From an uncultured bacterium (lineage in GTDB: Bacteria; CG03; SLGR01; JAGXOG01), in the NCBI GenBank assembly GCA_964476445.1, contig CAYZAK010000001.1, positions 8,351 through 72,350 on the forward strand: a DNA stretch of 64,000 nucleotides. Direction: 5' to 3'. Numbering within the stretch: position 1 is the first letter of the stretch; the number at the start of each line of letters is the position of its first letter. The position numbers were made by a program, and so were the translations under genes. Under the pieces are notes generated by a model. It was not told the origin of the DNA, ran no database searches, and saw only the letters and a program-made list of their open reading frames with translations. Positions 27,362-63,992 of this stretch are shown one piece after another.

Positions 27362-28504
27362 TCAATCAAGTATTGCATCGCCCATCCCATCGGGTTCGTC
27401 CTGTTCTTCCTGGCCGTCGGGCTTATGATGTATTTTATTAATTATTTTTTTAACTACAACAAAATATACTACCAGCGGTACTATCAAGAAAATCCCCAGA
27501 AAAGCCCACCAGGACATTGCCGCTTCCGGCCCCCCGGTAATTAACTGGGTCGTAAATCTATCAAGATTAAAAATAATAATTATAAAAGAACTATATATTA
27601 AACTGAAATTAGTCCTTGGGTCACTGGCTTTTACCAGTTCAAAACCCTCGGTCCGGGGGGCAAGTAAAGGCCACAGAAGCGAACCGCCTATATGCCCGGT
27701 CATATCTTCGGTTATATGGGTGGCAAAGCCTATAAAAGCAACTAAAGGGTACATCCACCATAAATACAGCCCCATAATATAGGTAATTATTCCCACGGGT
27801 ATGGATATTAAAATCCCCAAAACATATGAATGGCTCCAGGTTCTATGCCAGGGCAACCAGTTAAAGTATATGTTCCCATCGGTCTCTTTTTCCAGACCAA
27901 ACATTGTACTTGAAAGTATATCTATGGTAGATGGTTGTACTCTGGTTTTTTTCTTTTCTCCCCCTTTAATTTTCTTTCTTAAAAATCTTATAGACCGGTT
28001 TAACCAATCCACCTCGTCCGAACGCGGTTTTAAGGTATGGTTTAATTTAGCTCTTCCCACCCTATTTTTTTCAGGAGCGGTTCCCTCAAACGGAATCTGA
28101 GACGTGCTGACAATTTCATTTATCTGAACTACCACTTCATCCTTTTCAAAGAAAATACAATACTGCCTCCATCTGTTTCCACCCAGCTGTATAGGGAAAT
28201 ACTGTATCCGTACTTCTTTTCCGGTACGGGCTGCTTCATCTACAGCATTGGCAAATGCCTGAGCCATCTTCTGGGGATCAGGATTGCGGGGATCAGGATC
28301 AATTTCATATTCGGGATCCTGAAAAAACTGACCAAATTTAAAATCAAGGGTATCGGGCATAATACCGTACATACCGGCGAGAACTAAAATAAAACTGGAA
28401 GAAGCTCCCTGTACATCTAAACGGGAAGAGACCGACATTCTAACCACCTGGGGTATAAAAGTGGATACTGCAACTCCGGAGACAAAATGGGTAAGACCTT
28501 TCAT
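27362..28504 (-). CDS. Membrane-bound metal-dependent hydrolase, DUF457/YdjM-like, with a large soluble insertion
   Basis: N-terminus MKGLTHFVSGV and later GIMPDTLDF ... FATHITEDMTGHIGGSLLWPL resemble DUF457 histidine motifs; a ~170 aa charged insertion sits between the membrane segments. Confidence 0.45.
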   Translation of the reverse strand: MKGLTHFVSGVAVSTFIPQVVRMSVSSRLDVQGASSSFILVLAGMYGIMPDTLDFKFGQFFQDPEYEIDPDPRNPDPQKMAQAFANAVDEAARTGKEVRIQYFPIQLGGNRWRQYCIFFEKDEVVVQINEIVSTSQIPFEGTAPEKNRVGRAKLNHTLKPRSDEVDWLNRSIRFLRKKIKGGEKKKTRVQPSTIDILSSTMFGLEKETDGNIYFNWLPWHRTWSHSYVLGILISIPVGIITYIMGLYLWWMYPLVAFIGFATHITEDMTGHIGGSLLWPLLAPRTEGFELVKASDPRTNFSLIYSSFIIIIFNLDRFTTQLITGGPEAAMSWWAFLGIFLIVPLVVYFVVVKKIINKIHHKPDGQEEQDEPDGMGDAILD

Positions 28505-28508
28505 TGGA

Positions 28509-31111: not shown

Positions 31112-31154
31112 TTTTTTTATTATACTAAATTAATTTTATAAATCAATTTTAATA

Positions 31155-31991
31155 TCAAAGGGCTTCTTCTATAGTTTCTTCCACAGCAGTAGACAGCCGC
31201 TGTACAATTAAATCCACCCGGCGGTTCATAGCTCTTTGTTCGGCTGTACGGTTAGCAGCCACCAGGTGTCTCTGAATAACTTCTTGCATCTCTCTTTGGA
31301 GACTCAACTGCCGATGCCGTATTTTTCTTATTACCATCTCTTCTTCTTCGGGAGTGCCGGCTTCAACAATTTCTTCGGAAAATTCGTGGGGGACATCTTT
31401 TACTCTCTGTTTATACCTGCTAATTTCCTCATTAAACTCTGTCTCTACCGCAGGATGGTATTTACTGTATCCTCCCGCCGATAGACGGCCCGGAGGAAAA
31501 TCCAGCTGTTCGGTAAGAAATCTAGTTATATTAGTAGCCCGGGTGGCCGAAAGTTCCCAGTTAGAGGCAAACTCCGCCGTTCTTATAGGAACACTGTCAG
31601 TATGCCCTTCCACTCTGATATCATTGGGGATATCTATTATCTCTTCGGAAATATCGGCCAGAATATCTTTTGCCTCTTCGTATATATCAGCTTTGCCGGA
31701 ATCAAACATAAGTTTTTCACTTAGACTTATTACCAACCCCCGGGTATCTATTTCCAGAACTATGACTTCTTCAAGCTGGTTTTGATCAGCGTAGGTTTCC
31801 AATCTTCTTTTTACCTGAAGTAACTGCATCTCGTTTAGAGTAGCAGCCAGGGCAAACATCATGACAAAAAATATTAAAAGCTGGGTTACTAAATCAGAGT
31901 ACGTGGTCATCCAGGGCGGGGACCCTTTACCTATCTCTATATCTTCATCCTCACCTTCTAAGAGAATATCATTTTCTTCATATTCGGCCAT
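31155..31991 (-). CDS. motB: Flagellar-type stator protein MotB (OmpA-like peptidoglycan-binding C-terminus)
   Basis: Conserved TM with proton-binding Asp: WMTTYSDLVTQLLIFFVMMFALA (cf. E. coli MotB YADFMT...); OmpA-like core RVEGHTDSVPI...NWELSATRA...NRRVDLIV. Confidence 0.82.
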   Translation of the reverse strand: MAEYEENDILLEGEDEDIEIGKGSPPWMTTYSDLVTQLLIFFVMMFALAATLNEMQLLQVKRRLETYADQNQLEEVIVLEIDTRGLVISLSEKLMFDSGKADIYEEAKDILADISEEIIDIPNDIRVEGHTDSVPIRTAEFASNWELSATRATNITRFLTEQLDFPPGRLSAGGYSKYHPAVETEFNEEISRYKQRVKDVPHEFSEEIVEAGTPEEEEMVIRKIRHRQLSLQREMQEVIQRHLVAANRTAEQRAMNRRVDLIVQRLSTAVEETIEEAL

Positions 31992-32878
31992 TATTTTTTC
32001 TTCTTGGATTTATACTTAAATTTTTTCTTTTTAGTCCTTTTATTGGTTCTTTTTGATTTTTTCTGTTTAGTTTTCTTACCCTTTTTATTTTTTTTCTTAT
32101 CTTTCTTACCGGTATTTTCTTTGTCCGTCGACCGGGGTAAATACGCCCTGAGTTTAGATACCGCAATAGAAGGTATTTCACCCGCCTGTAATGAAAGAAC
32201 CCCCCTTAAAATAACTTTTTTAATAAAAATTTCATCTTCCGACCGTCTTTTTAACTTACCGGCTATAGGCAAAAACAACAAATATGCAACCAGGGCTCCG
32301 TAAAACGTGGTAAGTAAAGCCACGGCCATTCCCGAAGCTATCTGAGCCTGATCCCTGAGATCGGCAAGCATCAATATCAACCCCATTATAGTACCTATCA
32401 TCCCAAAAGCAGGAGAATAAGTTCCTAGAGTCACAAAAATTTCCTGCCCGACCTTATGGCGTTCCCGGGTAAAAGCCAGCTCGGTCTCAAGTTCCTCCTT
32501 AATGAGCTCGTAGCTCTGACCGTCAACAACCATCTTCACACCGCTTTTTAAAAACTCGTTGTCCATACTTTTTATATCATTCTGAAGAGATAGAACACCT
32601 TTTTTAGAAGCTTTTACTATTAAGGCCCGGATGGTATCAATATATTTCTGGGGATCTTCCTGCTCCTCGGTAAAAACCTTTTTCACTATTTTAAAAGCTT
32701 TTAAAACCTGTTTAAGGGGATAAGTAACCATAAGAGCGGCAAAAGTTCCTCCGAAAGTTATTAGAGCCGAAGGTAAATCTATAAAACCCATTAGACCGCC
32801 CGCTCCACCTCGTTGAAAAACAGACATAACTACAAGGATTATCCCCCCGGACAATCCTATTATAGTGGTTAAATCCAT
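31991..32878 (-). CDS. motA: Flagellar-type stator protein MotA with ~45 aa poly-lysine C-terminal tail
   Basis: Four TM helices; TM3-TM4 signature GTIMGLILMLADLRDQAQIASGMAVALLTTFYGALVAYLLFLPIAGKLK close to MotA/PomA. The C-terminus ends with STDKENTGKKDKKKNKKGKKTKQKKSKRTNKRTKKKKFKYKSKKKK. Confidence 0.85.
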   Translation of the reverse strand: MDLTTIIGLSGGIILVVMSVFQRGGAGGLMGFIDLPSALITFGGTFAALMVTYPLKQVLKAFKIVKKVFTEEQEDPQKYIDTIRALIVKASKKGVLSLQNDIKSMDNEFLKSGVKMVVDGQSYELIKEELETELAFTRERHKVGQEIFVTLGTYSPAFGMIGTIMGLILMLADLRDQAQIASGMAVALLTTFYGALVAYLLFLPIAGKLKRRSEDEIFIKKVILRGVLSLQAGEIPSIAVSKLRAYLPRSTDKENTGKKDKKKNKKGKKTKQKKSKRTNKRTKKKKFKYKSKKKK

Positions 32879-32882
32879 AGAA

Positions 32883-33104
32883 TTATTCTTCTTCTTTTAA
32901 ATTGGAAAGTTCTTTCCAGGCTTCTGCGTTGATATTTTTACGGTACTCTTTAACTTTTTCTACAATTTCTTCAATTTTTTCTTTAACCATTAACCGGTTT
33001 CCGCTGGTAAGAGAGATATGAGTATCCGGATGGGCGGTAATTGTCTCTATTAATTCGGCATTTAAAACTATCCGGGTACCGTTCATTTTTGTCACAGTTA
33101 TCAT
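32883..33104 (-). CDS. flbD: FlbD-family flagellar protein
   Basis: MITVTKMNGTRIVLNAELIETI...TLTSGNRLMVKEKIEEIVEKV matches the short FlbD family encoded immediately upstream of motA in spirochaete and Firmicute flbD-motA-motB operons. Confidence 0.75.
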   Translation of the reverse strand: MITVTKMNGTRIVLNAELIETITAHPDTHISLTSGNRLMVKEKIEEIVEKVKEYRKNINAEAWKELSNLKEEE

Positions 33105-33106
33105 AA

Positions 33107-36100
33107 TTATAAAACTAAAATATCTTTAGATGAATTTTTCTTAAATTTATCAGTAATTTTTTTAAAGAAAGATTTCCGCTCTTCCTGAAGTTCACGTAAA
33201 AGACGGGCCTGGTTTTTCTCCAGTTCCTGTCTTTTCTTCTTCTCCTGTTCAGCTATTTGGGATAGCTGTTTCTGGTCTCTTAACATTATATCAAATTTTT
33301 TCTTTAAATTATCTCTTTCCTTAATAACTTTCTGAGTTTTATCTATGAAATTCTTGATTTTTTTCTCCCGATCATCCCATTTTTTCTGCCAATCCTGTTC
33401 CATTTTTTTCTTATCGGCTTTTGAAATCCGGTCGGAATTTTGTTTAGACATTTCCTCTAATCCTATTTCTAACTGAGCTTTAAGTTCCCGAATTCTGTCT
33501 TTTAAAGTGTTATTTTTCTGTTTAAGATTATTAACTGTAGTTTTATTCTGAGAATTCGAAACAGATTTTTCTTTTAGTTCCTTTAACTGTTTGTTTTTAA
33601 GCTCTATATCTTTTATAGCTTCTTCAAGTTCTCCTTTCAACTCGTTTATCATATTTACTTTTTGTTCCTGCTTTGCCAGAATTTTTTTGTTTTTTTCAAG
33701 TTTTTGGTTTAACTTTTTATTTTCCTGTTTTAAATTTTCCAGCTCCTGTTCATCCTCTTCAGAAGGTGTCCGGGAAAGATTTTCCTGTAAATTTTCTATC
33801 TTTAAAGTTTTCTCTTCCAACTCATTCTTTAAGTTTTCAATAACCTTACTTTTTTGGGTCAAATTTTCCTCAAGGTTTTCCTGCGCTTCAAGTTCTACGT
33901 TTAAATTTTCCACTCTGTTGGATAATTTTGCTATCCGTTCTTCTTTCTTTTTCAGTTCGTCATTATCAGGCCTGCTGGAAAGATTTTCCTGTAAATTTTC
34001 TATCTTTAAAGTTTTCTCTTCCAACTCATTCTTTAAGTTTTCAATAACCTTACTTTTTTGGGTCAAATTTCCCTCAAGGTTTTCCCGCTCTTCAAGTTCT
34101 ATGTTTAAATTTTCCACTCTGTTGGATAAGTTTGCTATCCGTTCTTCTTTCTTTTTCAGTTCGTCATTATCAGGCTGGGAGGCGATTTTTTCTTCCAAGT
34201 TTTTGATTTTTTGTTCTTTTTTTTCAAGTTCTTCTTTTTCAGGATTATGTATTAATTTCTTTTCTAAATTTTTAATACGGTCTTTCTGATTTCCTATAAT
34301 TTTTTCTTTATCAACTACATCGGTTTTTAAAGTTTCTATCTTTTCTGCTTTAGCCGTAATTTCATCTTTTAAATTATTGGCTTCACTCTGGTCTATTTTA
34401 TACCTCATTTCTGAGGTTAAATCCTTTATTTTAGAATCTTTTTTTTCAATCTCTTTTAAAATCTGGTTGATCTCTTCTTGATGAGAGGCCTCTTTTTGGG
34501 AAAGTCGCTGTTCTAATTTTTCTATACGCTCTTCTTTATCTTTTAAATCGTTTTTTACCCTTTTAAATTTTTCTGTTATATCTGACAGTTCTCTTTCCCG
34601 ATTTTCTGATATTTGGTTGTTTTTATGGAAATTCTCAACATATTCCTCGGTCTTTTGTTTGAACCGGTTAAAATTATATTTTAAATTATCCAGTTCCTTG
34701 TTTTTATATTCAAGCTCTCTGTTTAATTTATTATTTTCTTCCTCTAATTGTTCCAGCTCTAATCTAAAATCCTTTTTTCTTTCTTCGTATTTATCAGCTG
34801 AATCCCATTTTTCCTCCACCTTGTGCAACAGATCCTGATAATTATTTTTAAGCCGGTCTATTTCATTTCTAAGCTTATCTTCTCGCTTTTCAAGTTCAAA
34901 TTTAATAACCTTGTTTTCTTCTATCTTTTTATCATATTTATTTTTCCACATTTCTATTTCCTCCCTAGCGGTTTTAAGCTCTTCCCGAGCTGACGCAAAT
35001 TTAGCTCTGTGTTCTAAGAGCTTGCTTTCCTGAGTTTCTAATTTTTGATTAAGTTCAACAATCTTGTTTCTGGCATTATTTAAATTCTGTTTAAGTATAT
35101 TTTTTTGTTTATATATATGACTTTTGAGATCTTTTATTTCGGATTTATAATCTTCTATTTTTTGGGCGTGTCTTTTTTCCTGTTCATTTAATTTTAATTT
35201 TAATTCCTCTTTTTCAGAGGTTCTTTGTCTTTTAATATCTCTTACCCGGCTTTGAAGACTTGAAATTTCATCTTTTAACTCTTCTTCTTTTTCCTGATAA
35301 TTAAGACGGAGTTCCTCCTTCTGTTTATCCCATTCCTCTTTAAGCCACCGGGTATTTCTTTTATAATCTTCGAATTCTCTTTTTAAACTCCGTATTCTTT
35401 GATCCTTACGGTTTCTTAATTCTCTTACAGTATTCCGGGATTCTTCAAGCTGGTTATTAAGTAACTCTAATTGCCGGTTATAATCCTCTTCGTTTTTATT
35501 AAGTTTTTCCCGTTCTTCGCGTCTTATTTCTCTAATTTTACTCTCTATTTCAAAAGCTGCGTCTTCTTTTTCCTTAATTACACCGGACAATTTTTCCTTC
35601 ATCTCTTTATTTGTACGGTTTAGATTATGATTTTCATCGTCAAATTCCTGTAAATCTGTTTTTAACTGTTCATTTTTCTTTTTAAGATTACGGTTCTGCC
35701 TTATATTATTTTCCAGTTCTTCTTCTAAATTTTCAATCTTTTGGGCTGTTTTACGGTGTATTTTTTCTTTCTCTTCTTTTAGAGTTTCCACTTTATTTTT
35801 CTGAGTTTCATAACTTTGTCTTAAACTGTTCATTTTTTCTTCATATTCATCTTCTATTTTGGTTTTTATTTTTTCATAATTTACTTTTTTTGTTTTTATA
35901 TTTTCTAACGCTCGGCTGTGAAGTTCTTCTTTAGCGGAAATCTGCTGTTCATATTTTTGCTGAATATTCTTAAACTTTTCTGCCAAATTAGCCTTGCTGT
36001 TCTCTAAATCTTTAATTTGGGATTGGTAATCTTTAATTTTATTACTATATTCTCGTTCCAAAGTTCTAATTTTATCTTCATTCTGTTCATTAATATTTCT

Positions 36101-37426: not shown

Positions 37427-37542
37427 AAGATTATCAAGTACTAATGTAAAATTTGATTTTTTTCAAGTTTTAAATTTTATTTTACAGTTTTATATTATTA
37501 TATCCTTATTTTTCTATTGCCATTTTCATTGTATTTATATTC

Positions 37543-41090: not shown

Positions 41091-41112
41091 ATCATTTGTA
41101 CAAAAAAAATAC

Positions 41113-54500: not shown

Positions 54501-57500
54501 TTCTATTTCCCAGGTACCCGATCTGTATGCTTTCATATAGTAAGACACTCTGGACGTTCCGGTAGTCATCACCACCCTGTTATCAGGGTAAATATCCACC
54601 CAGTTAGTAGAAGATTTGGAAAACTCATATATATCCGATGAAGTTGAATCGCCGGTTTCCGCGTCTTTAAAATAGAGGTTAATTTCTTCGTTGTAATCCA
54701 CTTCCGACCAGTTTCCGTACTGATCCCTGGCCTCTATGTCAATTCGCCAGCTGGTGGCCCCGGCAACCAGAGGATGTTCGGAAGTGTAAGGTTCGGATAC
54801 ATATACCAAACGGTCTGGATCGGCGGGATCTACCTGCTGAACCTGCTGGGCGCTTCCCCAGTTCACCGGCGCGCCTTTGTATTCAGACGGTCCACTAACA
54901 TCCACCCTGGGATTACCCCGGACATGATCCAGATAATTAAACTCAGCCTGGTAGGGCAGCAGAGATTTTTCAGAATCCGTTGAAATATATAACTTTGGTC
55001 TGGAGGGTTCCCAGTCATCCACGTAGCTGAACGTTCCCATATTGGTTTCAAAACCGCACCATGAGGAATCCGAATCCAGGGTCAATTCCACGGTTTCGGT
55101 AACCGGTTTGACATTTCCGTAATCATCGTAAAGGCGGATTCTCATCTGAGGGGAATAGTTTCCGGCCCGCATCTCCATGGACCCGGTATCAAAATTTATA
55201 GACATTATATCGTCGGGATCAACCCGGACATCATATACACCGTCACCGGTCGGGGGGTGGGGATCCCCGGTTCCTCCCAGATTGGCATCGGCGGTTATTG
55301 TATGGGAAGCCATAGTTACTTCGTCCCAGGAAGCTTTTTCCTCATAATAATATATTTCCCTCACGTACTCCCCGCTGGGTATTAAAATATCCTGCAGACC
55401 GTTATTATTATTGTCCGTCAAAGGTAAATTATTTTCATCGTAAAACCGGTGCCTGGGACTAACATTCGAACCCACATCCCACGGTGACCCGGAATCAGTA
55501 TATATATTAATTCTGGTATCCCCGGTCACCGCATCGTTGCCATACTGATCTTTTCTAAATAATACGTAAGGTATATCCACATCCGGCGAATCCCCGGCCG
55601 TAAACTGCGGATTTCCCTCTTCAAATATCAAATAATCGGCAACTCCTCCAATAGAGGTTATCCATGCCGACTGTCCGCTTATGGGTTTTGTGGAAGCTGA
55701 TACGTCTATTATGGCCTCGTCGCCGGCGTACTGGGAGACGGTATAACTTATCCCTCTAACCATACCCGAAGAATCAACCACCGAGGTCTGGGGGGTTATT
55801 ACACTGCCTTCATTTTTATTGCCGATATCTAAGGTCTCAGTAAAAGAGATATTATAAGTGGAAATTTCAACTTCCAGTCCCTCAGCCCCTTCTATGGTGG
55901 TATTGTAATAATTATCGGTGGCGAAAGCCCTAATTTCTCTTGTATCGCCAGCCGGAATATCCACCGGATCCATGGGGAATACCGTAAACCGGCTCACCGA
56001 TCCGGGCGATATTTCTATACCGGTCTGTTCGCCGTAAATACCGTTGAATTCGTAAAAACTGTCCTCCACCCGTACGGTCCGGTCGCCGGCCCGTCTTAAA
56101 GTTACACCGGCGTCCCAGGTTCTTACTCCTTCATCTTCCACAGTAAAAGTGTAGTTACCGGGTAAACCGGAGCCGGGAGCTTCCGTGGTTCCGGGCCAGT
56201 CGGCGTCCTCATCGGCGGAAAATACTACCTCGCCCTGATAGGCCCGGTCTTCGGGCACTGTACCGCCGTCGGCTACATTTCCAAACTGGTCCCTGGCGGT
56301 GACCGTAACATCGCTGGCTGACCCGGCGGAAGTATCCTGGATGCCGGTAACATCCAGATAATCGGTATAATCCGGGTCCAAGGGCTGATGGGAGGAAGTA
56401 GCCCTTATTATACCGTAACCGTCTACAGCATCCGCATATATCCGGTTTGATTCCAGGACCGTCTTTAAAGTTATATCCGGAAAAGTTCTGTCTCCGCCGG
56501 TCAGCACCCGGGCAGAAGGTAAATCAGCCTGGGGATCTTTAGAAGATAGTCCTACTTCCGGACCGGTGGAAACCAGGTTCCAGTAATCATCCACTGCCCG
56601 GACGGTAATATCAAATCCCTCTCCGGCTCGCTGTATATCGGGAGTTCCGGCGATACCGTCATCGGAACCGGGTTCGGGAAATTCATCGGGAAGTACTACC
56701 TGCAGCCGGCTAAACTGGTTGGGATAAACCTCTATTTCGGGGGTATATCCAACTTCAAGCTTTTCGGCAGTATCGGTCAGTTCCACCGTCCAACCGCCGT
56801 CTGGCGTGGTCCCGGCGTTACGGGCGGTTCTAAAGGTAATATCAATATTCCTTTCACCATCTGAAAGCGTACTGGGAGCCGGAGTTATACCGTAGGGATC
56901 ATCCACTGTGGCGTGCACCTGGGCGGTGGACCGGGCTACATTCCACCAGTCATCACAGGCCTGTAAATAAGCTATGACAGGTTCACCGGCGATTTGAGAA
57001 TCGGGATCGCCCGAAAAACCGGTAGCCGAATTTCCAACATCAGCTTCAAGTCCGGGTACAAGGACCCTTAACTGAGTGGCCTCGTTGGCCACTACATCTA
57101 CCGGCTGGGACTCATCTGACTCATAGGGGGGGAGTTTTCCGGAGTCATCCTCCACAGTTAGGGTAGTCTCTCCCTCCCTGGCGGTGACCAGGGTGAGAAA
57201 AGCTTCGGCGGTACCATTTTCAAGATGGACACTTTGAGCGGTGTATCCATAGGAGTCACTATGGGGATCACTAGAATCAAGCTCCACTACCGGACTTGTG
57301 GTAGTAACCACATTCCAGTGTCTGTCGGTTAAATTTATAGTAACCGGAAATACCTGACCGGCTACCTGAGTTTCCGGAGAACCTTCTCTTCCGTCTTCGG
57401 AACCTGGTAAACCCGTAACTCCTTCTGGCAATACCTGGAGCCGGTCAGGATCTCCAACCTGGACTGGGACCGGATCGGATGTATCTTCATCCAGAGCACC

Positions 57501-60500
57501 GGTGGAGGCAGTATCTTCGGCAGTAACCGTAAATCCCGTATCATTGGCGGTTTTAAATATTACTGTAAAATCAGTAGTTCCGCCGGTCAGGATCTTCTGG
57601 TTTTCTATAACTTTGCCGTATTGATCAGTTACGGTAACTAAGACTTCAGGAGCGGCGCCGGTAACGTGGTTCCACCAGGTATCCACTGCCTCCACGGTTA
57701 CTTCAAACTCCTCCCCGGCGGTCTGGGGAGCGGGTTCGTCGGTACGCCCTTCAGATCCGGTATTACCGGGTTGAGGTTCGACCCCGGGAACCAGTACTCT
57801 CAATCGCTGGGCGACATTGGGATCAACGGTTACCTCTGATGAAGTATAATTGACCAGGTCCGAATGTTCAGCAGTGACCATAGAAATTCCCGCGGTATAT
57901 AAAGTTATAGGTACCTGCGCCGTACCACCTTCAACATTTACCGGACCGGGATCAACATCGTAAAGATCGCTGGTATATACCTCCACTTCTTCGGTTACAT
58001 CGGTAATATTCCAGAACCGGTCGGTAATACTAACCGTGGAATAAAAGACCTGGCCGGCTACCTGGTCATCCGGATCTATACCGGAAACTTTTCCGTAAGG
58101 TTCCTGAGAATTCTTAACCTCCGGTTCGTCGGCATTACCGGGCAGTGCTTCTTCACCTTCTAAAAGAACCTGCAGTCTGGCCGGAGAGGCGGCATCAACC
58201 TGTACTACAGAAGAAGTGGACGAACTGTAATATCCTCCGGTATCCACCGCGGTAACCGTCCAAGTAGACGCGGCAACCAGGGGCATATCAAAATCCCTGT
58301 AACCGTCCGAGGTGAGAGACCGGGCCGTTGGCCTTTTGGCGAAAGGATCCTCCGGATACACTCTTACCGTGGGATTGGGATCAATATCTTCGCCTTCAAC
58401 AACATTCCATACAGAATCGGTCAGGTACACCCTGACAGTAAAATCTTCACCGGCGGTCTGGGGATCAATTTCTCCGCCGTCGTGACCCACACCGGGAACG
58501 TTTTCCTGGTAGGGGTGTATCAGAGCCTGCAATCTTTCCGGGGGCCCTGCTTTAACCGGAACTTCCCGGGATATATCCCCGGTAAGATCAGTCCCGTCAT
58601 CGGTAGATACATACACTGTCCAGCCCGAATAATCCTTGGTAATTAAAGTAAGACCGTCCTCATCGGACCCAAAAACATATCTGCCGTCAAACAAAGCGGC
58701 CCGGTCAGGGTCGTAACCGGCGGCATTTTCATCATCGGACCAGATACGGATAATATTGTCGGCATCGTAGTCCCTATTCCACCATTCATCCACCGCCATC
58801 ACTTCAACTTCAAATGATTCTCCGGCGGTCTGAATTTCCGGCTCCCCGGTCCGGCCGTACGGAGCTTCGGAAACGGGAGAATTTTCCCAGCCCCCGGGCT
58901 GATGTTCAACTCCGGGAACTAAGACAATAAGTTTTGTGGTTGTAGAAGCGGTAACTTTCACCGGTTCTGTAGTATAAGAATCCAATTCCCCGTCAGCATG
59001 GATAGCCCTGACCCAGGATGTTGCCGCTCTTTTTAGGGTAATTTCAAAACTATCATATCCGTCAATTAGATATTTTTCAGCCGGTTCTATATCGTGGGAG
59101 TCATACGTTTCTATATCCACCAGGGGCTCATAATCCGAATTGATATTCCAGTGATTGTCCACCGCATATACATCCACTTCAAACGGCGCGCCGGCAACCT
59201 GTTCTTGGACTTTTCCTACCTTTCCCGTATCCGTACCCGGTTCATAGGTTTCCCCGGGTAAAATAACCAAGAGTTTTTGTGCAGAATCGGGATCAACCGG
59301 AATTCTTGCCGATTGAGAGGATAAAAGAATATCTTCGGTATCTTCCGCCCTTATCCACCATTCTGTATTGGCCGTCTCAAAAGTGACTGTGAAAGTAGAC
59401 TTACCGCCCATTAAATATCTATCTTCTATAACAGTTGTATTTGGATCTTCGGTTATTAAACTAACCGTGCCTTGAGCTTCTTCATCTAAATTCCAATGTT
59501 CGTCGACCGCCCGTACAATGGCAGTAAAACTCTGTCCGGCAGTCTGCTCTTCGGGCTCACCTATAATCCCATATTCTGTGCCGGGTAAATATTCCTGTCC
59601 GGGAACTTCAACCGAAAGTTTTACCGCCCCGGCCGGGCCGGTGTAAACTGTGGAAGTACTGCTGTAAAGATTATAGTCCGTATTCCATTCATTAGCAGAA
59701 ACTTTATTGTACTGATTGGCAGTCTTTAATACCATGGTAAATTCCGTCGTTCCTCCTATAAGCGTTCCGGTTGAGGGAAGAACGGCGTTATCATCGGTGG
59801 AAGTTATCCTGACCGCCGCCGTAGTATCGGTAATATTAAAGTCCGAGTCCACCGAATAAACATCAAAAGTAAACTCTTCTCCCGCAGTCTGGGTATCGGG
59901 CTGACCTTCTTTCCCAGTGGGATAATTCCTAGACGGGGTATGCTCTTCTCCCGGAAGAACAGTCATCAACGCGTAAGGTTCGCCGGCCTCGGTATATATT
60001 CCTGAATGAGTTTCTCCGGTAAGCAGCTCGGGATAAATATCCTCCACGGTAAGATAAGAAGTAGTATGGGCCCGGGCCAGGGTGACATCGAAGAAAGCCC
60101 GGCCGTTGGTGAGCTCTTCAGCGGGGGGATCTATATAATCAGCTTCTAAATAATCGCTGGTAAGTTCCACTATTGTATCATCTTCTACGTCCGGAGTTAA
60201 GTTCCAGAATTCATCCACTCCCCTCACTTCCACTTCAAAAGAGATCCCGGCGGTCTGCATCCTGACTTCCCCGCCGCGACCGGCTTCCGCGACATTGCCC
60301 CCGTCCTCGTATTCATCGGGAGCGAGTATCTGAAGTTTGACCGGAGTATTGGGCCGGGTAAATATACCCCGGGGTGTAGTATAATTTTCTATTCCGGAGG
60401 CCACCGCATCTATAGTCCAGGTGGAGTGGGCCCGCCTAAAATCTATGTTAAACGTGGTCGCTCCTCCGGTAAGAGACCGGGTGGGCGGATGGGTATCGTG

Positions 60501-63500
60501 GGGATCCTGGGTATTTATACTGACCGAAGGTTCGGCGGTGGTCTGGTTCCAGAATTCGTCAGTAGCGTAAACGTCTATTTCAAAAGGTTCTCCGGCAACC
60601 TGGACTTCCGGTAACCCGGTCTTACCCTCAGAAGAACCTTCCACATAATCTTCGCCGGGTAACACAATAATTAATTTTTCCGTACCTGCCGATTCAACAT
60701 ACACCAGCTGAGAAGTGTGGGATTCAAAAGCCTGGCCGTCAACGGTAGACACCTTTACCCGCCAGGAATCATTGGCTGTTCTAAACTCATGACTTATTTC
60801 AGTCTCTCCCACAAAACTAAACTCTTCACTTGAATCATGGGGATCGGTAGAAGTTAGTTCCGCGGTAACTCCGGCCTGGGTAATGTTCCAGAAATCATCA
60901 ACTGTTCTTACGGTAATATTAAGAGGCTGACCGGCCACCTGACCTTCAGGAATCCCCGTACGGCCCGAAAGGCTTCCGGGATCCCCCCCTTCACCGGGCA
61001 GAAGAACCTGCAATTTTTCCGGATCGGCAGACTCAACCGGTATATAGGAAGAAATATTCGGCAGTATATTATCACCCTCGGATGTGGAAACCTTCACCTG
61101 CCAGGGGGCGTTTTCGGCGTCTTTTAAGATAATCTGAAAATCCTGTGTACCGTTAGTAAGGCCCTTTTCTGTTTCCGGAGACTCAAAATATTCATCTGTG
61201 GCCTCTATTTCTACTCCGGGATTGGCCGAAGGTTGTAGGTTCCAGAACTCATCCACCGCTGCTACATTAACCGTAAAACCGGAACCTGCCACTGCTTCCT
61301 GAACCTGTCCTGTCTTACCGGATACCGAACCCGGGGTTACACTTTCACCGGGTACCAGAGCCTGGAGTCTTTCAACTTCAGCGGGTTCCACAGAAATTTC
61401 AGATGATACATAATCATCCCAGCCGGCGGCCTGGGCGGCAACCGTCCAGGTAGCCTGAGAGTAATTTTGCCACTGGGTATTGTCCTTCCATGCAGTCTTT
61501 AAAATAATGCCGTAATCCCGGGTGCCGGTAACCATTCGTGATCGCGGCGAGGATTCGCCGGGCTCGCCGTGAGGATCATTTGCGGCAACGCTTACTTCTG
61601 CGCTGGAAGAATATTTTATATTCCAGTATTCATCGGTTAAATTTACGGTCACATCAAAATCTGCGCCGGCGGTTATTTCCTCTGTTTCTCCATCTTTGCC
61701 GGTTCCCGGACCGGGAACTCTTTCCTGACCCGGAGTAAGTACCTGAAGCCGGTTTCCGGCGCCCGGGTCAACGGTAACACCCACTGAATCGGTATCCAGA
61801 TCTCCGTCAACATTCACCACGGTTACAGTCTGAACCTCTGCCCGGTACATGGTAAAGAATCCCTCCCCGTGTCCGTCAACTAAGGGCATACTGGAAGATT
61901 TCGTACCGTAGGGATCAGTTATCTCAAAATCCACCCAGGGTTCAGCGTCTGTAGTTACATTCCAGTAATCGTCGGTAACGTAGATATCTGCGGTAAATTC
62001 CTCTCCGGCAACCTGGACTTCGGGCTCCTTCTCCGGGTTCTTTCCGGTATCCGTACCCGGAAAGGTCTCTTCCCCGGGAAGGACAAGCTGCAATTTTGAA
62101 GGAGTATCAGGTTCAACAGTAGCCGGATTATTCTGGGAGTGACCGGCAGGGAAATTATCATAACCGTCAGCGGCCGCCTCAACGTGCCAAGTATCTGCGG
62201 TCACCATAGTTACCAGAATATCTTCAGTTCCGGTTATTTCCAGACTTCCCGGATTATCAGCGTTGGGATCGGTAGTTGTAACATTTACCGTTCCCGTGGC
62301 CTGAGGCACTATATTCCAGTATTCGTCACATATATTTACCGTAGTGTAGAACGCGTCCCCGGCAATCTGGTTTTCAGGCATAGCCACCGTCTTACCGGAA
62401 TCCGTACCCGGATCGGTCTCTTCTCCGGGAAGGACAACCTGAATCTGTTCGGCAGTGGTGGGTTCCACGTTTATATTGGCCTGTTCGCCGTACACCGAGG
62501 GAGTGGCCGTATCATATACCAGCAAAAATTTGCGGGAGGACGGATCAATCGAAGCGGTCCGGAATCTGACAAGGTTGGTCAGAGTTATTATTCCTTCGTC
62601 TTCCTCGGGTACGAAGGTATAGGTAGCAACTTCCACGTCGTTCCCTTCTATTCTAAAATCCGATTCAGACCATTCTTCCTCATCACGTTCGGCGATCTGG
62701 TCCGGATCTTTAGTTCTGAACCTTACCGTCCCGTTGTAAGTAAGAGCAGTCTGCCCATCTCTGTCTAAGGCCTCTACGGTTATATGCTGGCGAGCGCCGG
62801 CCTCGACGGGATCGGAAATACCGGTCACCCTAAACTCTTCCGCGGGAAGAACAACCACAAAATCGGAGACATCCGGGGCGGTTTGAACATTACCGGCCAT
62901 ATCTATACCCCTGCTGCTCATCCTGTACTCCCGGCCGGTGACCCACATCTCAGAGGGAAAAGAATATGACCAGGTGCCTTCCTGCTCCCCAGATGGATAA
63001 TTATGAGCATCCATCCATAGTTCGGAACTGTCCGTCCATGTAGAACCATTCCAGTAGTAACTGTCCCCTTCCTGGGGATAATCATCTATTCTGAGGGAAA
63101 ATTCAACCTTATCTACCAGTCCCGGCGGCGTATCGGCCACTTCCCCGGAAAGCAATGTCAGGGCGTCCCGGTCTTCGGTAGCTTCGTCAGCCGGGCGGAT
63201 ATTTTCTGAAACCGGCGGAGTTTCGTCGTAAATCATTTCCACAGGACCCATCCACCCGGAAAGGTTGCCCACATTATCCTCAGCCCGGGTGTAAAACTCA
63301 TACACCCGGTTATCGTCCCAGGAAAGGTTGGCGTTAACATAACTCCAATTTGTGGTACCGGGTTCAATCCCGGTATCCAACGGCACCGGGTCTTCAGCCT
63401 GAAAACCCACTCCGTCAAACCAGTTTCCGGTGGCGCTGTCAAATATACTCAGTTCAACTTTCTCAACTTCGCTGGTTTCATCATGAGCAGTACCGTATAT

Positions 63501-63992
63501 AGTCTGTCCGTAAGAGTTGTAGTGGTTGCCGTCTTCCGGTTCGGTCACTGTTGAAAGCGGCGGCGTGTCGTCAAATAAAAACTCAATTTCAGCCACCTGG
63601 GACTGAATATTTTCAGGAGTTGCCGAATCTTCGGCATAAACTTCCAGACGATAAGTATTTCCCGATTCCCAGTCAAGATTGGTATCTATTCCCAGTCCTT
63701 CAGCATTCCACTCTATATCCGGCCCCTGGGATAGAAAATTGGTACTCCACCAGTTATCCGGACTTTCAGCCCAGTCTTCAAGGGCCCAGTAGTAAGTAGT
63801 TGAAGCGGTAATATCAGAAATACGTACTCTAACTCTTCTCACATCGCTTAACCCGTCGCTGGCCGTTCCGTGTATATCGGCGCCGGCAAGCTCAGGCAGA
63901 GTCTGGGCATCGGCCGGGTTTACAATTTCAGAATCGGGTTCGGTCATATCTATGGTAAACCGATGATGGTTCCGGTCCCCTTCCGCACCCAC
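48225..63992 (-). CDS. Giant (>5255 aa, 5' end outside window) repetitive surface adhesin-like protein with T9SS-type CTD
   Basis: ORF is open to the window edge (true N-terminus upstream of 63992). It contains 17 tandem ~112-aa repeats with motif [KR]LQVLLPGEE.PG...GKTG.P..Q.AG..F...V...D.[FW]WN and a second repeat family with motif L.G......DI..V.IY.D..GDG.FDP..D.L. It also has Big_1-like segments (DVTVTARDQFGNV) and two FN3-like domains. C-terminal CTD: VEVYLYDMMGYLVKYWEFDAGENGGRQGHNSFPWYAVNERGQDVAKGGYLARIVVKSDEGTVEKTRRIAIIR. Confidence 0.7.
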   Translation of the reverse strand: MGAEGDRNHHRFTIDMTEPDSEIVNPADAQTLPELAGADIHGTASDGLSDVRRVRVRISDITASTTYYWALEDWAESPDNWWSTNFLSQGPDIEWNAEGLGIDTNLDWESGNTYRLEVYAEDSATPENIQSQVAEIEFLFDDTPPLSTVTEPEDGNHYNSYGQTIYGTAHDETSEVEKVELSIFDSATGNWFDGVGFQAEDPVPLDTGIEPGTTNWSYVNANLSWDDNRVYEFYTRAEDNVGNLSGWMGPVEMIYDETPPVSENIRPADEATEDRDALTLLSGEVADTPPGLVDKVEFSLRIDDYPQEGDSYYWNGSTWTDSSELWMDAHNYPSGEQEGTWSYSFPSEMWVTGREYRMSSRGIDMAGNVQTAPDVSDFVVVLPAEEFRVTGISDPVEAGARQHITVEALDRDGQTALTYNGTVRFRTKDPDQIAERDEEEWSESDFRIEGNDVEVATYTFVPEEDEGIITLTNLVRFRTASIDPSSRKFLLVYDTATPSVYGEQANINVEPTTAEQIQVVLPGEETDPGTDSGKTVAMPENQIAGDAFYTTVNICDEYWNIVPQATGTVNVTTTDPNADNPGSLEITGTEDILVTMVTADTWHVEAAADGYDNFPAGHSQNNPATVEPDTPSKLQLVLPGEETFPGTDTGKNPEKEPEVQVAGEEFTADIYVTDDYWNVTTDAEPWVDFEITDPYGTKSSSMPLVDGHGEGFFTMYRAEVQTVTVVNVDGDLDTDSVGVTVDPGAGNRLQVLTPGQERVPGPGTGKDGETEEITAGADFDVTVNLTDEYWNIKYSSSAEVSVAANDPHGEPGESSPRSRMVTGTRDYGIILKTAWKDNTQWQNYSQATWTVAAQAAGWDDYVSSEISVEPAEVERLQALVPGESVTPGSVSGKTGQVQEAVAGSGFTVNVAAVDEFWNLQPSANPGVEIEATDEYFESPETEKGLTNGTQDFQIILKDAENAPWQVKVSTSEGDNILPNISSYIPVESADPEKLQVLLPGEGGDPGSLSGRTGIPEGQVAGQPLNITVRTVDDFWNITQAGVTAELTSTDPHDSSEEFSFVGETEISHEFRTANDSWRVKVSTVDGQAFESHTSQLVYVESAGTEKLIIVLPGEDYVEGSSEGKTGLPEVQVAGEPFEIDVYATDEFWNQTTAEPSVSINTQDPHDTHPPTRSLTGGATTFNIDFRRAHSTWTIDAVASGIENYTTPRGIFTRPNTPVKLQILAPDEYEDGGNVAEAGRGGEVRMQTAGISFEVEVRGVDEFWNLTPDVEDDTIVELTSDYLEADYIDPPAEELTNGRAFFDVTLARAHTTSYLTVEDIYPELLTGETHSGIYTEAGEPYALMTVLPGEEHTPSRNYPTGKEGQPDTQTAGEEFTFDVYSVDSDFNITDTTAAVRITSTDDNAVLPSTGTLIGGTTEFTMVLKTANQYNKVSANEWNTDYNLYSSTSTVYTGPAGAVKLSVEVPGQEYLPGTEYGIIGEPEEQTAGQSFTAIVRAVDEHWNLDEEAQGTVSLITEDPNTTVIEDRYLMGGKSTFTVTFETANTEWWIRAEDTEDILLSSQSARIPVDPDSAQKLLVILPGETYEPGTDTGKVGKVQEQVAGAPFEVDVYAVDNHWNINSDYEPLVDIETYDSHDIEPAEKYLIDGYDSFEITLKRAATSWVRAIHADGELDSYTTEPVKVTASTTTKLIVLVPGVEHQPGGWENSPVSEAPYGRTGEPEIQTAGESFEVEVMAVDEWWNRDYDADNIIRIWSDDENAAGYDPDRAALFDGRYVFGSDEDGLTLITKDYSGWTVYVSTDDGTDLTGDISREVPVKAGPPERLQALIHPYQENVPGVGHDGGEIDPQTAGEDFTVRVYLTDSVWNVVEGEDIDPNPTVRVYPEDPFAKRPTARSLTSDGYRDFDMPLVAASTWTVTAVDTGGYYSSSTSSVVQVDAASPARLQVLLEGEEALPGNADEPEVKNSQEPYGKVSGIDPDDQVAGQVFYSTVSITDRFWNITDVTEEVEVYTSDLYDVDPGPVNVEGGTAQVPITLYTAGISMVTAEHSDLVNYTSSEVTVDPNVAQRLRVLVPGVEPQPGNTGSEGRTDEPAPQTAGEEFEVTVEAVDTWWNHVTGAAPEVLVTVTDQYGKVIENQKILTGGTTDFTVIFKTANDTGFTVTAEDTASTGALDEDTSDPVPVQVGDPDRLQVLPEGVTGLPGSEDGREGSPETQVAGQVFPVTINLTDRHWNVVTTTSPVVELDSSDPHSDSYGYTAQSVHLENGTAEAFLTLVTAREGETTLTVEDDSGKLPPYESDESQPVDVVANEATQLRVLVPGLEADVGNSATGFSGDPDSQIAGEPVIAYLQACDDWWNVARSTAQVHATVDDPYGITPAPSTLSDGERNIDITFRTARNAGTTPDGGWTVELTDTAEKLEVGYTPEIEVYPNQFSRLQVVLPDEFPEPGSDDGIAGTPDIQRAGEGFDITVRAVDDYWNLVSTGPEVGLSSKDPQADLPSARVLTGGDRTFPDITLKTVLESNRIYADAVDGYGIIRATSSHQPLDPDYTDYLDVTGIQDTSAGSASDVTVTARDQFGNVADGGTVPEDRAYQGEVVFSADEDADWPGTTEAPGSGLPGNYTFTVEDEGVRTWDAGVTLRRAGDRTVRVEDSFYEFNGIYGEQTGIEISPGSVSRFTVFPMDPVDIPAGDTREIRAFATDNYYNTTIEGAEGLEVEISTYNISFTETLDIGNKNEGSVITPQTSVVDSSGMVRGISYTVSQYAGDEAIIDVSASTKPISGQSAWITSIGGVADYLIFEEGNPQFTAGDSPDVDIPYVLFRKDQYGNDAVTGDTRINIYTDSGSPWDVGSNVSPRHRFYDENNLPLTDNNNNGLQDILIPSGEYVREIYYYEEKASWDEVTMASHTITADANLGGTGDPHPPTGDGVYDVRVDPDDIMSINFDTGSMEMRAGNYSPQMRIRLYDDYGNVKPVTETVELTLDSDSSWCGFETNMGTFSYVDDWEPSRPKLYISTDSEKSLLPYQAEFNYLDHVRGNPRVDVSGPSEYKGAPVNWGSAQQVQQVDPADPDRLVYVSEPYTSEHPLVAGATSWRIDIEARDQYGNWSEVDYNEEINLYFKDAETGDSTSSDIYEFSKSSTNWVDIYPDNRVVMTTGTSRVSYYMKAYRSGTWEIEAERAAGGWNWGRQEVEVVGGEITQLEIITSTRNIIVSPEYSDYTQYNPEDYRITVQARDKYGNYSRVEESVDLSLDATGPPGIEDPGANFSTDGGENWGVSVISIPGGSHSSSFYYTSRVAGKNKVTVSEDPYRGWEEASQVVNVYPADPVEFELDLHDNNYATVYRNKGVDITAKDTYGNHASGHPDPNKPYGSTDTWHYYVGKATFNIVAPGYPEERRPIFTIDGSQTETYDFANSVGHEFWEPGELTAEIRADVVTDEAVGVEPIVIQMTDSEDDTIYGESDELTVTGAIVRPYTDAMTGERMTVDDLFQDHTNALMDRLDIFTTTGTAEWSEMRVDLEGTVPDEDVIAVRIWLDDGDGAFTPPEPDDPNNLDGSSPETLLSSGTFQNGFAILDLEENTGHPQYIGQSARHYFITVDMAYDAEPDNYLNLHWEKRYFSASGRWRGTEVADNNFDINTPTVTVRIAPGDIVMPSWSLIKDTDTVRQAEEDVGFMAFDMVTTRYTIDWTELRVTLRGDGVSDDDIRAIKIFRDATGDKDFKPLADEIISSGHDRFGAEIEGVAMIDIGHYVDGEFEKRPQTIRESTQTYFVALDFDPAATPGAEVGIRIDSPDRVIARDDEGENRVLDFNDKNRDGVQDPGEEDTFPAPMPADEDTPQPEIQPTEDTLLIARDSTMGNIRQGARNAAYSILDLRSDANSVIWTGLRVDKTGSLTDEWVDAVKVWWWVSGSTDAAGQPVVNTTTNSPTGLADRLISEGADVFSSSTTFMEFDEDNHQDIRDSGTPGYPRRYLVTIDLNPYAPEDESLGIRIADTDYFTVTDPNQVSDAQIPIDVSEKIVNPYPDTVTVEPTDISYQITDPDTGVQDGLFIQNRTDMPTLRLNFETKISYAHWMDNEAENEPALVLFQEGTASDEDIENVTLWWDKDLTGRINTGDVRISTGNRFTEGVCRIRIPEDKAQMLGEPDGSFEPLPKSFIISLDLDRHAVPDRTIQLSINEQANFSISSPNTMSDENLPYITQVSTIIASPSLVTVDPADKAPVREFQGTRDVHMATLDMEVDGYHVDWEGLRLRRVGNDYSRDSDFSRVAVYRNESPHDPGEEPPFTPDVDELVAEGEVRDGFVNLNFTDQYGSQIIRSDEENFWFIVADISADADNNSEVGLRIGDRGYFTVAYPHAVDDIEFETRHIQIDPTEDTMIVTPDDREMLRVVQGDSVRYFQHLRDLYEEGEIEYEEIEDNPYGRLLAGTIVLETDAHASIWTGMDIHLEGDAADPDISSARIYKDTQDEGVFDPETAELVSDAMNIFVDGVCELNFREENYQTIDTNPQRYFIVLEMSNQARVGREVGIRFNTDDFRYVGDWDEVRWRNYSRWSEPEEEEEAYQIGDVVEYQEQLWESTVDENMSQPGINNDWIEFDEGDFTTSLAQITEFEDIIRLTPERDADGRPPTPARVVQGEGDVLMDQFTLTTRNPDPYIPSAEADWYGVRIELTGESIIDDIKAVKIYYDSNNNGIFEPGADRLITLSTEVFSEGRDVNITFPKEHIQTIGSRARRYFIVYDIAVEAEPEHAPGSRITSPGIFSISGNNEIAEQPEIYPVESEEAFIDPIKIDFEPVDVSPAGARQNERDVTMAEFRVRVATQTAAGADGGPTLNYLRFLKTGDLDDTGIDIIKMYRDTTGDGEFDPVKDMLVTSGDDIFEAGAARIDLTTGNVITAQYQIYYLTFDVAHAARVNGLIGLRLESDITTNLNITPQQRIITGEKKEPFFEVAAMLIRNEYAPTIPEVDVEEWINSPTTVRANWRSHTTSEEGITHNLYSAAGAEFRDLGKTSDSEGWSSAEATLHGLSLRHGEIYTFRVRTASQDDEGNVVWSPGHGEASFRVDLNPPTEPGKPVPDQQRQDKPMVSYNVSWDDAQDDASETESGVARYEVQERRDTSPDWQTVAYVSSDNNSYFIEEKDPGHFYYYRVRARDNAGNWGPWSEISEPAVTGMPDEVVSEVSNYPNPARFDLGAEKTKITYILNQDANVEVYLYDMMGYLVKYWEFDAGENGGRQGHNSFPWYAVNERGQDVAKGGYLARIVVKSDEGTVEKTRRIAIIR
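49400..53600. repeat. Second family of ~8 tandem ~150-170 aa repeats with DxDGDGxFDP-like putative Ca-binding loops
   Basis: Recurring blocks MRVDLEGTVPDEDVIAVRIWLDDGDGAFTP, LRVTLRGDGVSDDDIRAIKIFRDATGDKDFKP, GMDIHLEGDAADPDISSARIYKDTQDEGVFDP, GVRIELTGESIIDDIKAVKIYYDSNNNGIFEP, LRFLKTGDLDDTGIDIIKMYRDTTGDGEFDP and others; coordinates approximate (+/-150 nt). Confidence 0.6.
56390..62450. repeat. Array of 17 diverged tandem ~336-bp (112-aa) domain repeats inside the giant adhesin gene
   Basis: Protein-level periodicity LQ[VA]L.PGEE...G..GKTG.P..Q.AG..F...V.A.D..WN recurring every ~112-127 aa from residue ~515 to ~2535 of the window-truncated translation; the copies are diverged at the nucleotide level. 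Confidence 0.8.

Follow-up and report, generated by a model that had tools for sequence, protein, structure and literature searches.

A riboswitch-preceded operon of Elusimicrobiota joins a FliF/FliG fusion, MotAB and a PorV-like barrel and may encode a non-flagellar motor

Two described systems are among the closest to the locus reported here. One is the flagellar motor core with FliF, FliG, the stator proteins MotA and MotB, and FlbD (SwrD); the other is the type IX secretion system (T9SS) with the gliding machinery of Bacteroidota (GldLM/PorLM, GldKN, SprA, PorV, SprB), where an inner-membrane, proton-driven 5:2 motor is found together with an outer-membrane barrel of the PorV family and giant surface proteins bearing type A C-terminal sorting domains. 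The locus shares parts with both and lies on the minus strand of a 64,000-nt stretch of DNA from an uncultured bacterium (assembly GCA_964476445.1, contig CAYZAK010000001.1, positions 8,351 to 72,350; hereafter the window, numbered from its first letter). Its core is a six-gene operon (31155-41336) encoding a PorV-like barrel with TPR domain, a mini-FliF/FliG/TPR fusion protein, a Pro-rich giant coiled coil, FlbD, MotA and MotB.

In common with the flagellar motor core, the operon has a homologous third ring-building motif (RBM3) of FliF, the FliG_M and FliG_C domains, MotA, MotB with plug, channel aspartate and peptidoglycan-binding domain, and FlbD/SwrD. It differs in that FliF and FliG form one polypeptide with an extra C-terminal TPR domain; in that FliG_N, RBM1, RBM2, the beta-collar, the EHPQR motif and the arginines R281 and R297 are missing; and in that its fixed partners are an outer-membrane barrel and a coiled coil. 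Genes for FliM, FliN, the export gate, rod, hook or filament were found neither in the 64-kb window nor in any of the related loci fetched for comparison (about 30), in line with the earlier note on this DNA, which had seen no canonical flagellar genes beside the stator genes. Covalent fusions of FliF to FliG have been engineered in Salmonella (full-frame fusion; PMC6079021) and Vibrio (FliFG S-ring, 8z4d; PMC11481574) and still form rings; these are, however, laboratory constructs with full-length FliF within a flagellum, whereas the fusion described here is natural, reduced to RBM3 and located outside any flagellum.

Compared to the T9SS, the motor would consist of MotAB and a FliG ring instead of GldLM, and the barrels correspond to PorV at the family level only: the two barrels of the window score 30.4 and 29.2 bits against the PorV equivalog model NF033710, whose cut-off is 250 bits. 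Within the window, no gldK/L/M/N (porK/L/M/N), sprA/sov or porU gene was found, and sprA, porU, gldK and gldN did not occur in any fetched locus. The Agl-Glt complex of Myxococcus likewise combines an inner-membrane proton motor, TPR proteins, outer-membrane barrels and a large cytoplasmic coiled coil (AglZ), but its motor is TolQR-like (AglRQS) without a FliG or FliF ring, and a sequence relationship between its non-motor parts and the operon was not found. MotAB-like 5:2 motors in non-flagellar tasks are further represented by Salmonella SiiAB, associated with the giant adhesin SiiE, and by Zorya ZorAB with its very long coiled coil (both listed in PMC12204202). A FliG/FliF rotor, FlbD and a PorV-like barrel are lacking in both systems, and in ZorA the coiled coil belongs to the A subunit itself.

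Most free-living Elusimicrobiota lack structural flagellum proteins, yet possess homologues of motAB, flbD and fliG of unclear role (bioRxiv 10.1101/2022.07.08.499144), and flagellar genes were reported to be absent in Elusimicrobia (PMC7031533). In our literature search, a passing remark in the preprint of Uzun et al. was the only mention of the operon; the fusion, the gene arrangement, the link to the barrel and the riboswitch were not described in any paper found. As the locus, judged by the 64-kb window and the fetched loci, has the make-up of neither a flagellum nor a T9SS, despite the parts shared with each, we regard it as a new kind of system made from known modules; the evidence is genomic throughout.

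The six-gene operon and its FliF/FliG fusion protein

From position 27362 to the right edge of the window, the minus strand carries 12 co-directional open reading frames (ORFs), all at the coordinates given in the earlier note and with the junctions described there. The giant ORF (end 48225) and the FG-GAP gene (start 48188) are separated by 36 nt. ATGA overlaps occur between the FG-GAP gene and barrel 2 (42441/42444) and between barrel 1 and the fusion gene (39492/39495), and 1-nt overlaps between MotA and MotB (31991) and between the Zn-ribbon and TctA-like genes (29924). The remaining intergenic gaps are at most 116 nt, with the exception of 280 nt upstream of barrel 1. Profile searches agreed with the domain calls made before (FlbD, MotA, MotB, FliG, the barrels, FG-GAP, OB, and a DUF457-like protein, which is YdjM). 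The genes of the core operon are, in the direction of transcription:

39492-41090, minus strand: barrel 1, outer-membrane beta-barrel of the PorV/PorQ family whose C-terminal ~220 aa form a TPR domain (NF033709, 120.6 bits; cut-off 90)
37543-39495, minus strand: mini-FliF/FliG/TPR fusion, 650 aa (signal peptide or anchor, RBM3-like domain, transmembrane helix, linker, FliG_M, FliG_C, TPR)
33107-37426, minus strand: coiled coil of 1439 aa with Pro-rich N-terminus, without signal peptide or transmembrane segment (periodicity analysis)
32883-33104, minus strand: FlbD (PF06289, 86.7 bits against a gathering threshold of 24.7)
31991-32878, minus strand: MotA-type stator A subunit with polybasic C-terminal tail (MotA_ExbB, 106.7 bits)
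31155-31991, minus strand: MotB-type stator B subunit with plug, channel Asp33 and OmpA-like peptidoglycan-binding domain (PF13677, PF00691; YSDL motif with D33)

The fusion protein contains a FliF RBM3-like periplasmic domain at residues ~30-185 with an LPG[IV]P insertion, followed by a transmembrane (TM) helix (196-216), an FLFGPLRKF motif from residue 214 and a Gly/acidic linker. The RBM3 ring-building fold of FliF is found between two membrane segments. This part gave a weak full-length match to YscJ_FliF_C, and an AlphaFold model of residues 1-235 (predicted local distance difference test, pLDDT, 72.9) displays an alpha-beta/beta-alpha-beta fold, a disordered insertion and then the membrane helix, with 8z4d among the top three structural matches. 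The space between signal sequence and TM helix has room for one RBM only; RBM1, RBM2 and the beta-collar are absent, and a disordered 55-residue insertion (70-122) takes the place of the beta-collar. A full-length AlphaFold model of the fusion was used for its domain layout only.

The cytoplasmic part matches FliG_M (PF14841, 61.9 bits) and FliG_C (PF01706, 106 bits), ends in TPRs and aligns to the middle and C-terminal domains of Thermotoga maritima FliG (1lkv) with 142.6 bits. Against TIGR00207 it scores 154 bits, below the cut-off of 226.7, with model positions 110-332 of 338 matched and 1-109 unmatched. An N-terminal FliF-binding domain was not found, the FliG_N Pfam match overlapping the M domain; its place is taken by the covalent link to the FliF-like part. 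The FliM-binding EHPQR motif is degenerate: near-clade sequences read FEKPS...K, deep-clade ones EEPW. Together, the profile and structural matches bear out the earlier description of this protein as a mini-FliF/FliG/TPR fusion. The linker between TM helix and FliG_M (window 38580-38790) holds 27 Asp/Glu in 55 residues, and the MotA tail (window 31991-32130) 27 Lys/Arg in its last 45 residues, with basic tails also occurring in near-clade orthologues. Acidic linker and basic tail may form an electrostatic tether between stator and rotor.

MotA aligns to the flagellar MotA of Clostridium sporogenes (6ysf/8ucs) with 172 bits and to PomA with 163 bits, and its orthologues are 77-80% identical within the near clade. 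The best NCBIfam equivalog model for MotB gives 130.6 bits, below its cut-off of 264. The FliG features that tie the protein to FliM and to the FliF C-terminus are lost, and the torque interface is altered on both partners. In E. coli numbering, K264, D288 and D289 of the torque helix are kept as K460, E484 and E485, while R281 is replaced by G477 and R297 by T493. Among the 26 fusions aligned at this region, the R281 position is never Arg, being Glu in L034 and Gly or Ala in the other 25, and none retains the GPVR(297)L motif, whereas canonical FliGs caught by the same scan retain both arginines. The D288 equivalent is Glu in the long-type fusions, which carry the C-terminal TPR, and Gln in the two short-type loci aligned; the near clade retains the equivalents of K264, D288 and D289, the deep clade that of D288 only. 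On the stator side, R90 corresponds to S91 in the MotA of the window, with K92 and K93 adjacent, and E98 to Q99; Gln occupies the E98 position in 14 of 20 partner MotA proteins. E98 and R281 are a known interacting pair of MotA and FliG (PMC12505986). Both partners have lost this pair and retained the other, a pattern that resembles co-evolution of a simplified but working interface.

The profile search assigned no family to the 1439-aa protein, which is probably cytoplasmic. Residues 47-1439 include only 4 Pro and 6 Gly, and a 3.5-residue hydrophobic periodicity exceeds the 95th percentile of shuffled sequences in 63% of the windows along the protein. The Pro-rich N-terminus and a short C-terminal tail are the features conserved among its orthologues. 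The coiled coil may bind the cytoplasmic TPR of the rotor. An in-frame tandem duplication of 204 nt (33773-34175) is present in its gene in two copies; as these are 97% identical, the length of the coiled coil appears to have changed recently.

For the comparison of loci, ORFs were called in every fetched locus and compared with the proteins of the window, and the gene tables of some loci were also used. Full-length orthologues of the fusion protein are 52-64% identical, all named ones stemming from Elusimicrobiota metagenome-assembled genomes (MAGs), and a scan of species-representative genomes gave 31 loci, nearly all labelled Elusimicrobia, the taxonomy being that of the submitters' MAG labels. 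Near-identical operons under the labels Deltaproteobacteria, Sumerlaeota, Caldiserica and Thermoprotei (L010, L011, L013; P0171) are probably due to binning error, or possibly to horizontal transfer. The core gene order recurs in about 25 independent Elusimicrobiota loci, including high-GC groundwater lineages and down to 27-30% identity of the fusion, and is therefore far beyond chance. The barrel gene stands directly upstream of the fusion gene in all 24 loci with upstream sequence present. MotA follows downstream (with MotB where the contig continues) in all 18 loci that reach far enough, 16 of which have FlbD, and a Glu/Lys-rich coiled-coil protein of 756-1655 aa with a Pro-rich N-terminus is encoded at the matching position in 17 loci. 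The parts of the operon are thus identified and strictly co-linear across deep Elusimicrobiota lineages, with a conserved riboswitch of the cyclic di-GMP (c-di-GMP) class ahead of them. As adhesin genes accompany this order in part of the loci only, we consider the six genes to be the real unit and the adhesin genes a frequent but optional neighbour. The linkage proposed in the earlier note hence recurs in related genomes, and none of the outcomes that the note had named as refuting it (no FliG/FliF homology, unrelated barrels, no conservation of the linkage) was obtained.

An exhaustive HMMER search with a mini-FliF profile returned 289 clusters (50% identity) at E<=1e-10. Among the 144 top matches not already found earlier, FliG_MC follows the mini-FliF domain in 123; the long type with C-terminal TPR accounts for 28 of these, and the short type of about 450-500 aa, which lacks it, for 95. 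Short-type genes adjoin MotA and one or two MotB genes (L004, L034, L037, L041). In the distant lineage of L037, a PorV-family barrel with TPR and LysM domains precedes the short-type fusion, MotA and two MotB genes, and in L042 a PorV-family barrel with TPR is encoded upstream of a divergent, incomplete fusion protein (P0026). Since the PorV-like protein of L037 resembles none of the gene products upstream of the short-type fusions in L004 and L040, the barrel link is universal for the long type only. In L004 (14936-21401), the short-type fusion, MotA, two MotB genes and a TPR protein gene adjoin a T2SS-F gene and several pseudopilin (N_methyl) genes, which may indicate a link to type IV filament systems or be due to chance.

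Promoter, riboswitch and neighbouring genes

In an alignment of ten loci, about 300 nt upstream of the barrel gene are conserved at the DNA level well above the flanking genes. The conserved stretch spans a TTGACA/TATTAAT promoter, an element of about 80 nt and a hairpin; the -35 and -10 columns are invariant or nearly so across the 10 orthologous leaders, while the flanking proteins are merely 52-64% identical. In the window, these elements are:

41307-41336, minus strand: sigma-70-type promoter of the motor operon, TTGAAA, 17-nt spacer, TATTAAT (sequence and leader alignment)
41191-41273, minus strand: c-di-GMP-I riboswitch aptamer (RF01051; Rfam 44.7 bits against a gathering threshold of 35, E 1.7e-5, full-length model match)
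41100-41150, minus strand: intrinsic terminator, the expression platform of the riboswitch (hairpin 41110-41150, 17-bp stem and T8)

The hairpin (41110-41150) with its T8 is the strongest terminator-like site of the region. It had been noticed before, and its 17 bp and T8 are real, but it is more than a hairpin, being the expression platform of a c-di-GMP-I riboswitch. RF01051 or its GGC variant RF03167 is located directly 5' of the orthologous barrel gene in 21 further loci (22 with the window), also in loci without upstream adhesin genes; neither was found in the long-type loci L013 and L016, even at E<=1, nor in short-type loci. The 5' arm of the terminator, UUGCCUUUAUC, is complementary to the 5' segment of the aptamer, GAUAAAGGCAA. 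For the nascent transcript, the minimum-energy fold (-43.4 kcal/mol) contains this antiterminator helix, and for the full leader it is the terminator that forms (-50.9 kcal/mol). Like the promoter, this antiterminator/terminator design is conserved.

This arrangement resembles that of the Cd1 riboswitch upstream of the flgB operon of Clostridioides difficile, where a GEMM-I aptamer and an intrinsic terminator also stand before motor genes. There, c-di-GMP is the OFF signal, as we infer for the operon described here. Cd1 differs in that it controls a true flagellar operon, the ligand response being a prediction in our case, and in that the deep clade has the GGC variant with a presumable translational platform. 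In this high-GC clade, RF03167 (65-68 bits; L021, 7094-7174; L022, L024, L025, L026, L027, L035, L036) abuts the start codon, which suggests translational control.

Upstream of the promoter, a second group of genes encodes another barrel and two large surface proteins, which together form an adhesin unit:

41371-42444, minus strand: barrel 2, PorV/PorQ family, part of the adjacent upstream adhesin unit (NF033709, 99.8 bits against 90)
42441-48188, minus strand: FG-GAP/Ig surface protein of 1915 aa with a T9SS type A C-terminal domain (FG-GAP_3, 122 bits), adhesin unit
48225-64000, minus strand: 3' part of a giant surface-protein gene, more than 5255 codons, with T9SS-like C-terminal domain; frame open to the window edge, adhesin unit

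Because the conserved promoter, riboswitch and terminator stand between them, adhesin unit and motor operon are separate transcription units. A single operon of 36 kb, as proposed in the earlier note, is ruled out by these three elements. Both barrels exceed the NF033709 cut-off, so that their assignment as PorV/FadL-like stands; barrel 1 also matches UPF0164 and several TPR models. Its ORF stays open to TTG 41165, but the ATG at 41090, from which the gene had been read before, is most likely the start. Orthologues of barrel 2 occur only in L001/L015 and L005, and the FG-GAP protein together with barrel 2 in three loci only (the window, L001 and L005).

For the C-terminal sorting domains assigned earlier to the two large proteins, conservation is strong and model scores are marginal. 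The FG-GAP protein reaches 23.4 bits as a whole and 29.0 bits as an isolated tail against TIGR04183 (cut-off 23), and the tail of the giant protein 22.0 bits, just below it; the Pfam sorting-domain model PF18962 gives 20.2 and 15.3 bits against 27. The tail of the giant also matches the tails of PorU and PorZ, and its last ~100 aa are strongly conserved in the counterparts encoded ahead of the operon in L001, L005, L006, L007, L011, L014 and L016. In L005 (1-1014), the orthologous giant is annotated with 17,658 aa. The start of the giant ORF had been placed at 63992; the frame, however, continues to the edge of the window, a signal peptide is missing from the apparent N-terminus and the protein exceeds 5255 aa. 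Where such giants with C-terminal sorting domains are encoded nearby, they are probably the clients of the barrel.

Downstream of motB, the co-directional genes continue as follows:

27362-31111, minus strand: Zn-ribbon/OB protein, TctA-family membrane protein and YdjM-family (formerly DUF457) protein (profile matches), tightly packed and co-directional, outside the conserved module

These three genes had been counted as parts of the module. No homologue of any of them was found downstream of motB in the related loci compared, and they are therefore ruled out as such. A complete Bat/aerotolerance-type operon follows directly (19892-27266, minus strand; MoxR AAA+ ATPase, DUF58, BatA/BatB-like VWA proteins, BatC-like TPR protein and BatD), which is unlinked to the motor operon in other genomes. 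Outside the cluster, the window holds this MoxR/Bat-type operon and housekeeping genes. An FMN riboswitch (RF00050, 77.7 bits, 9249-9384, minus strand) is located directly upstream of a ribD-type gene (8098-9180), an ordinary arrangement. A tRNA gene (16099-16170, minus strand, 71.2 bits) is situated directly 3' of a phosphoglycerate kinase gene (16187-17446) and upstream of a 114-aa ORF (15568-15912). At 13592-15534 (minus strand), a PilT/T2SSE-type ATPase gene adjoins a gene for a protein with a cyclic-nucleotide-binding domain, fitting type IV pilus functions.

A candidate motor and its alternatives

We consider it somewhat probable that the operon encodes an envelope-spanning motor outside the flagellum, which descends from the flagellar motor core, is under the control of c-di-GMP and may move or handle giant adhesins. 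At low c-di-GMP, the leader RNA would form the antiterminator and the operon would be transcribed, while binding of c-di-GMP would stabilize the aptamer, the terminator would follow and the operon would be off. The RBM3 domains of the fusion protein would oligomerize at the periplasmic side of the inner membrane into a ring resembling the S-ring, holding a ring of covalently attached FliG_MC under the membrane, so that neither the contact of FliG_N with the FliF C-terminus nor FliM/FliN nor an export apparatus would be needed. Stators of the MotA5B2 type, anchored to peptidoglycan by MotB, conducting protons via Asp33 and assisted by FlbD, could push the FliG_C helix by way of the one charge pair that is retained, MotA K92/K93 and FliG E484/E485. 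The output might be transmitted in two directions: outward, to the PorV-like barrel in the outer membrane via its periplasmic TPR domain, and inward, to the coiled coil via the cytoplasmic TPR of the rotor. The most likely role of such a motor would be surface motility or the handling or movement of surface adhesins, switched off in the high-c-di-GMP, sessile state. As the earlier note had proposed, a MotAB/FliG motor may in this way replace GldLM/PorLM for type IX secretion or gliding.

Several points weigh against this reading. Ring formation, rotation, the contacts with barrel and coiled coil, and gliding-type movement or adhesin handling are predicted from sequence, and the full-length AlphaFold model of the fusion is of low confidence (pLDDT 60.6; predicted template-modelling score 0.26). 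MotA misses all NCBIfam MotA cut-offs, its best equivalog model (MotP) giving 246.5 bits against 394. As two of the five classical torque-helix charges are gone, flagellum-like torque is not guaranteed. The absence of flagellar genes, and likewise that of gld/por genes, refers to the 64-kb window and the fetched loci, so that such genes may lie elsewhere in this MAG, and a few Elusimicrobiota genomes do have complete flagellar gene sets (bioRxiv 10.1101/2022.07.08.499144). Repression of the operon by c-di-GMP is a prediction of folding calculations. Furthermore, we know of no established ligand for the GGC variant RF03167. Lastly, a giant-adhesin gene lies upstream in 8 of 24 loci only.

This last count is also where the main rival explanation starts, which we regard as unlikely but worth weighing. 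MotAB and the FliF/FliG protein could act as a Ton/Tol-like energizer of the PorV/FadL-like barrel, supplying it with proton-motive energy for uptake, export or maintenance of the outer membrane, with the adhesins being incidental. The linkage of barrel, fusion and MotAB is universal, compared to the partial one of the adhesins; other 5:2 motors energize outer-membrane processes (listed in PMC12204202), and barrels of the FadL/PorV family are transport proteins. To our knowledge, though, FadL-type transport does not require energy, c-di-GMP riboswitches are typical of motility and adhesion genes rather than of nutrient uptake, and neither the giant coiled coil nor a FliG ring has a counterpart in Ton or Tol. 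The recurring upstream neighbour, moreover, always carries a C-terminal sorting domain, which is the part bound by PorV in the T9SS. The altered torque interface could instead point to a static, non-rotary assembly, in which fusion and coiled coil form a scaffold or c-di-GMP-linked platform, FliG/MgtE-N-like domains serve as interaction modules and MotAB is only an anchored ion channel or sensor. The loss of two torque-helix arginines and of the MotA glutamate, the lack of an axial structure to turn and the homology of FliG domains to MgtE N-domains (a weak MgtE_N match was obtained) would fit this idea. We think it quite improbable nonetheless, as the fusion resembles true FliG strongly and specifically (142 bits), MotB keeps its plug, Asp33 and peptidoglycan-binding domain, FlbD is kept as well, and the retention of one charge pair and loss of the other on both partners looks like a co-evolved, working interface.

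That the operon merely provides the stator and a switch part of an ordinary flagellum, with the remaining genes elsewhere in the genome, appears very improbable. FlbD-MotA-MotB is indeed a typical flagellar gene order in spirochaetes and Firmicutes, and the complete flagellar gene sets of a few Elusimicrobiota leave room for such a case. Against it stand the fusion without FliG_N, RBM1/RBM2 and the FliM-binding motif, the absence of other flagellar genes from the window and about 30 related loci, the published reports that most of the phylum lacks structural genes of the flagellum (bioRxiv 10.1101/2022.07.08.499144; PMC7031533), and the fixed linkage to an outer-membrane barrel and a coiled coil. 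Least probable by far is a decaying remnant of a lost flagellum without present function. Several canonical motifs are lost, as decay would have it, but the ORFs are intact, identities of 52-64% go along with many invariant columns, gene order is kept down to 27% identity, promoter and riboswitch are conserved, and 289 protein clusters are found in metagenomes; this conservation is too strong for a remnant, which we therefore rule out.

Meaning for Elusimicrobiota and for the flagellar motor

The envelope-spanning, c-di-GMP-controlled motor that we favour has a bolder version, which we hold to be rather doubtful at present: a new class of nanomachine, in which a mini-FliF/FliG ring spun by MotAB, without type III export or axial structure, passes its rotation on to PorV-like barrels holding giant adhesins. 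If true, this would be a flagellar-motor-powered counterpart of T9SS gliding and adhesin propulsion that is switched off by c-di-GMP. Bolder still, the minimal FliF-FliG/MotAB rotor could resemble a motor that predates the union with a secretion system, and not a reduced flagellum.

The MotAB-FliG torque couple is known from flagella only. A conserved operon with just that couple would show that the rotor-stator core works, and is selected for, outside the flagellum, which bears on the origin and modularity of the flagellar motor. The finding also bears on how Elusimicrobiota with chemotaxis and magnetosome genes, but without flagella, might move, a question posed before without an answer (bioRxiv 10.1101/2022.07.08.499144), and on what drives proteins with T9SS-like sorting domains outside Bacteroidota. 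It further offers a natural minimal rotor for structural work. Finally, it clearly associates c-di-GMP-I riboswitches with a set of genes, among them the GGC variant, of which little is understood and whose fixed tie to the operon could help to work out its biology.

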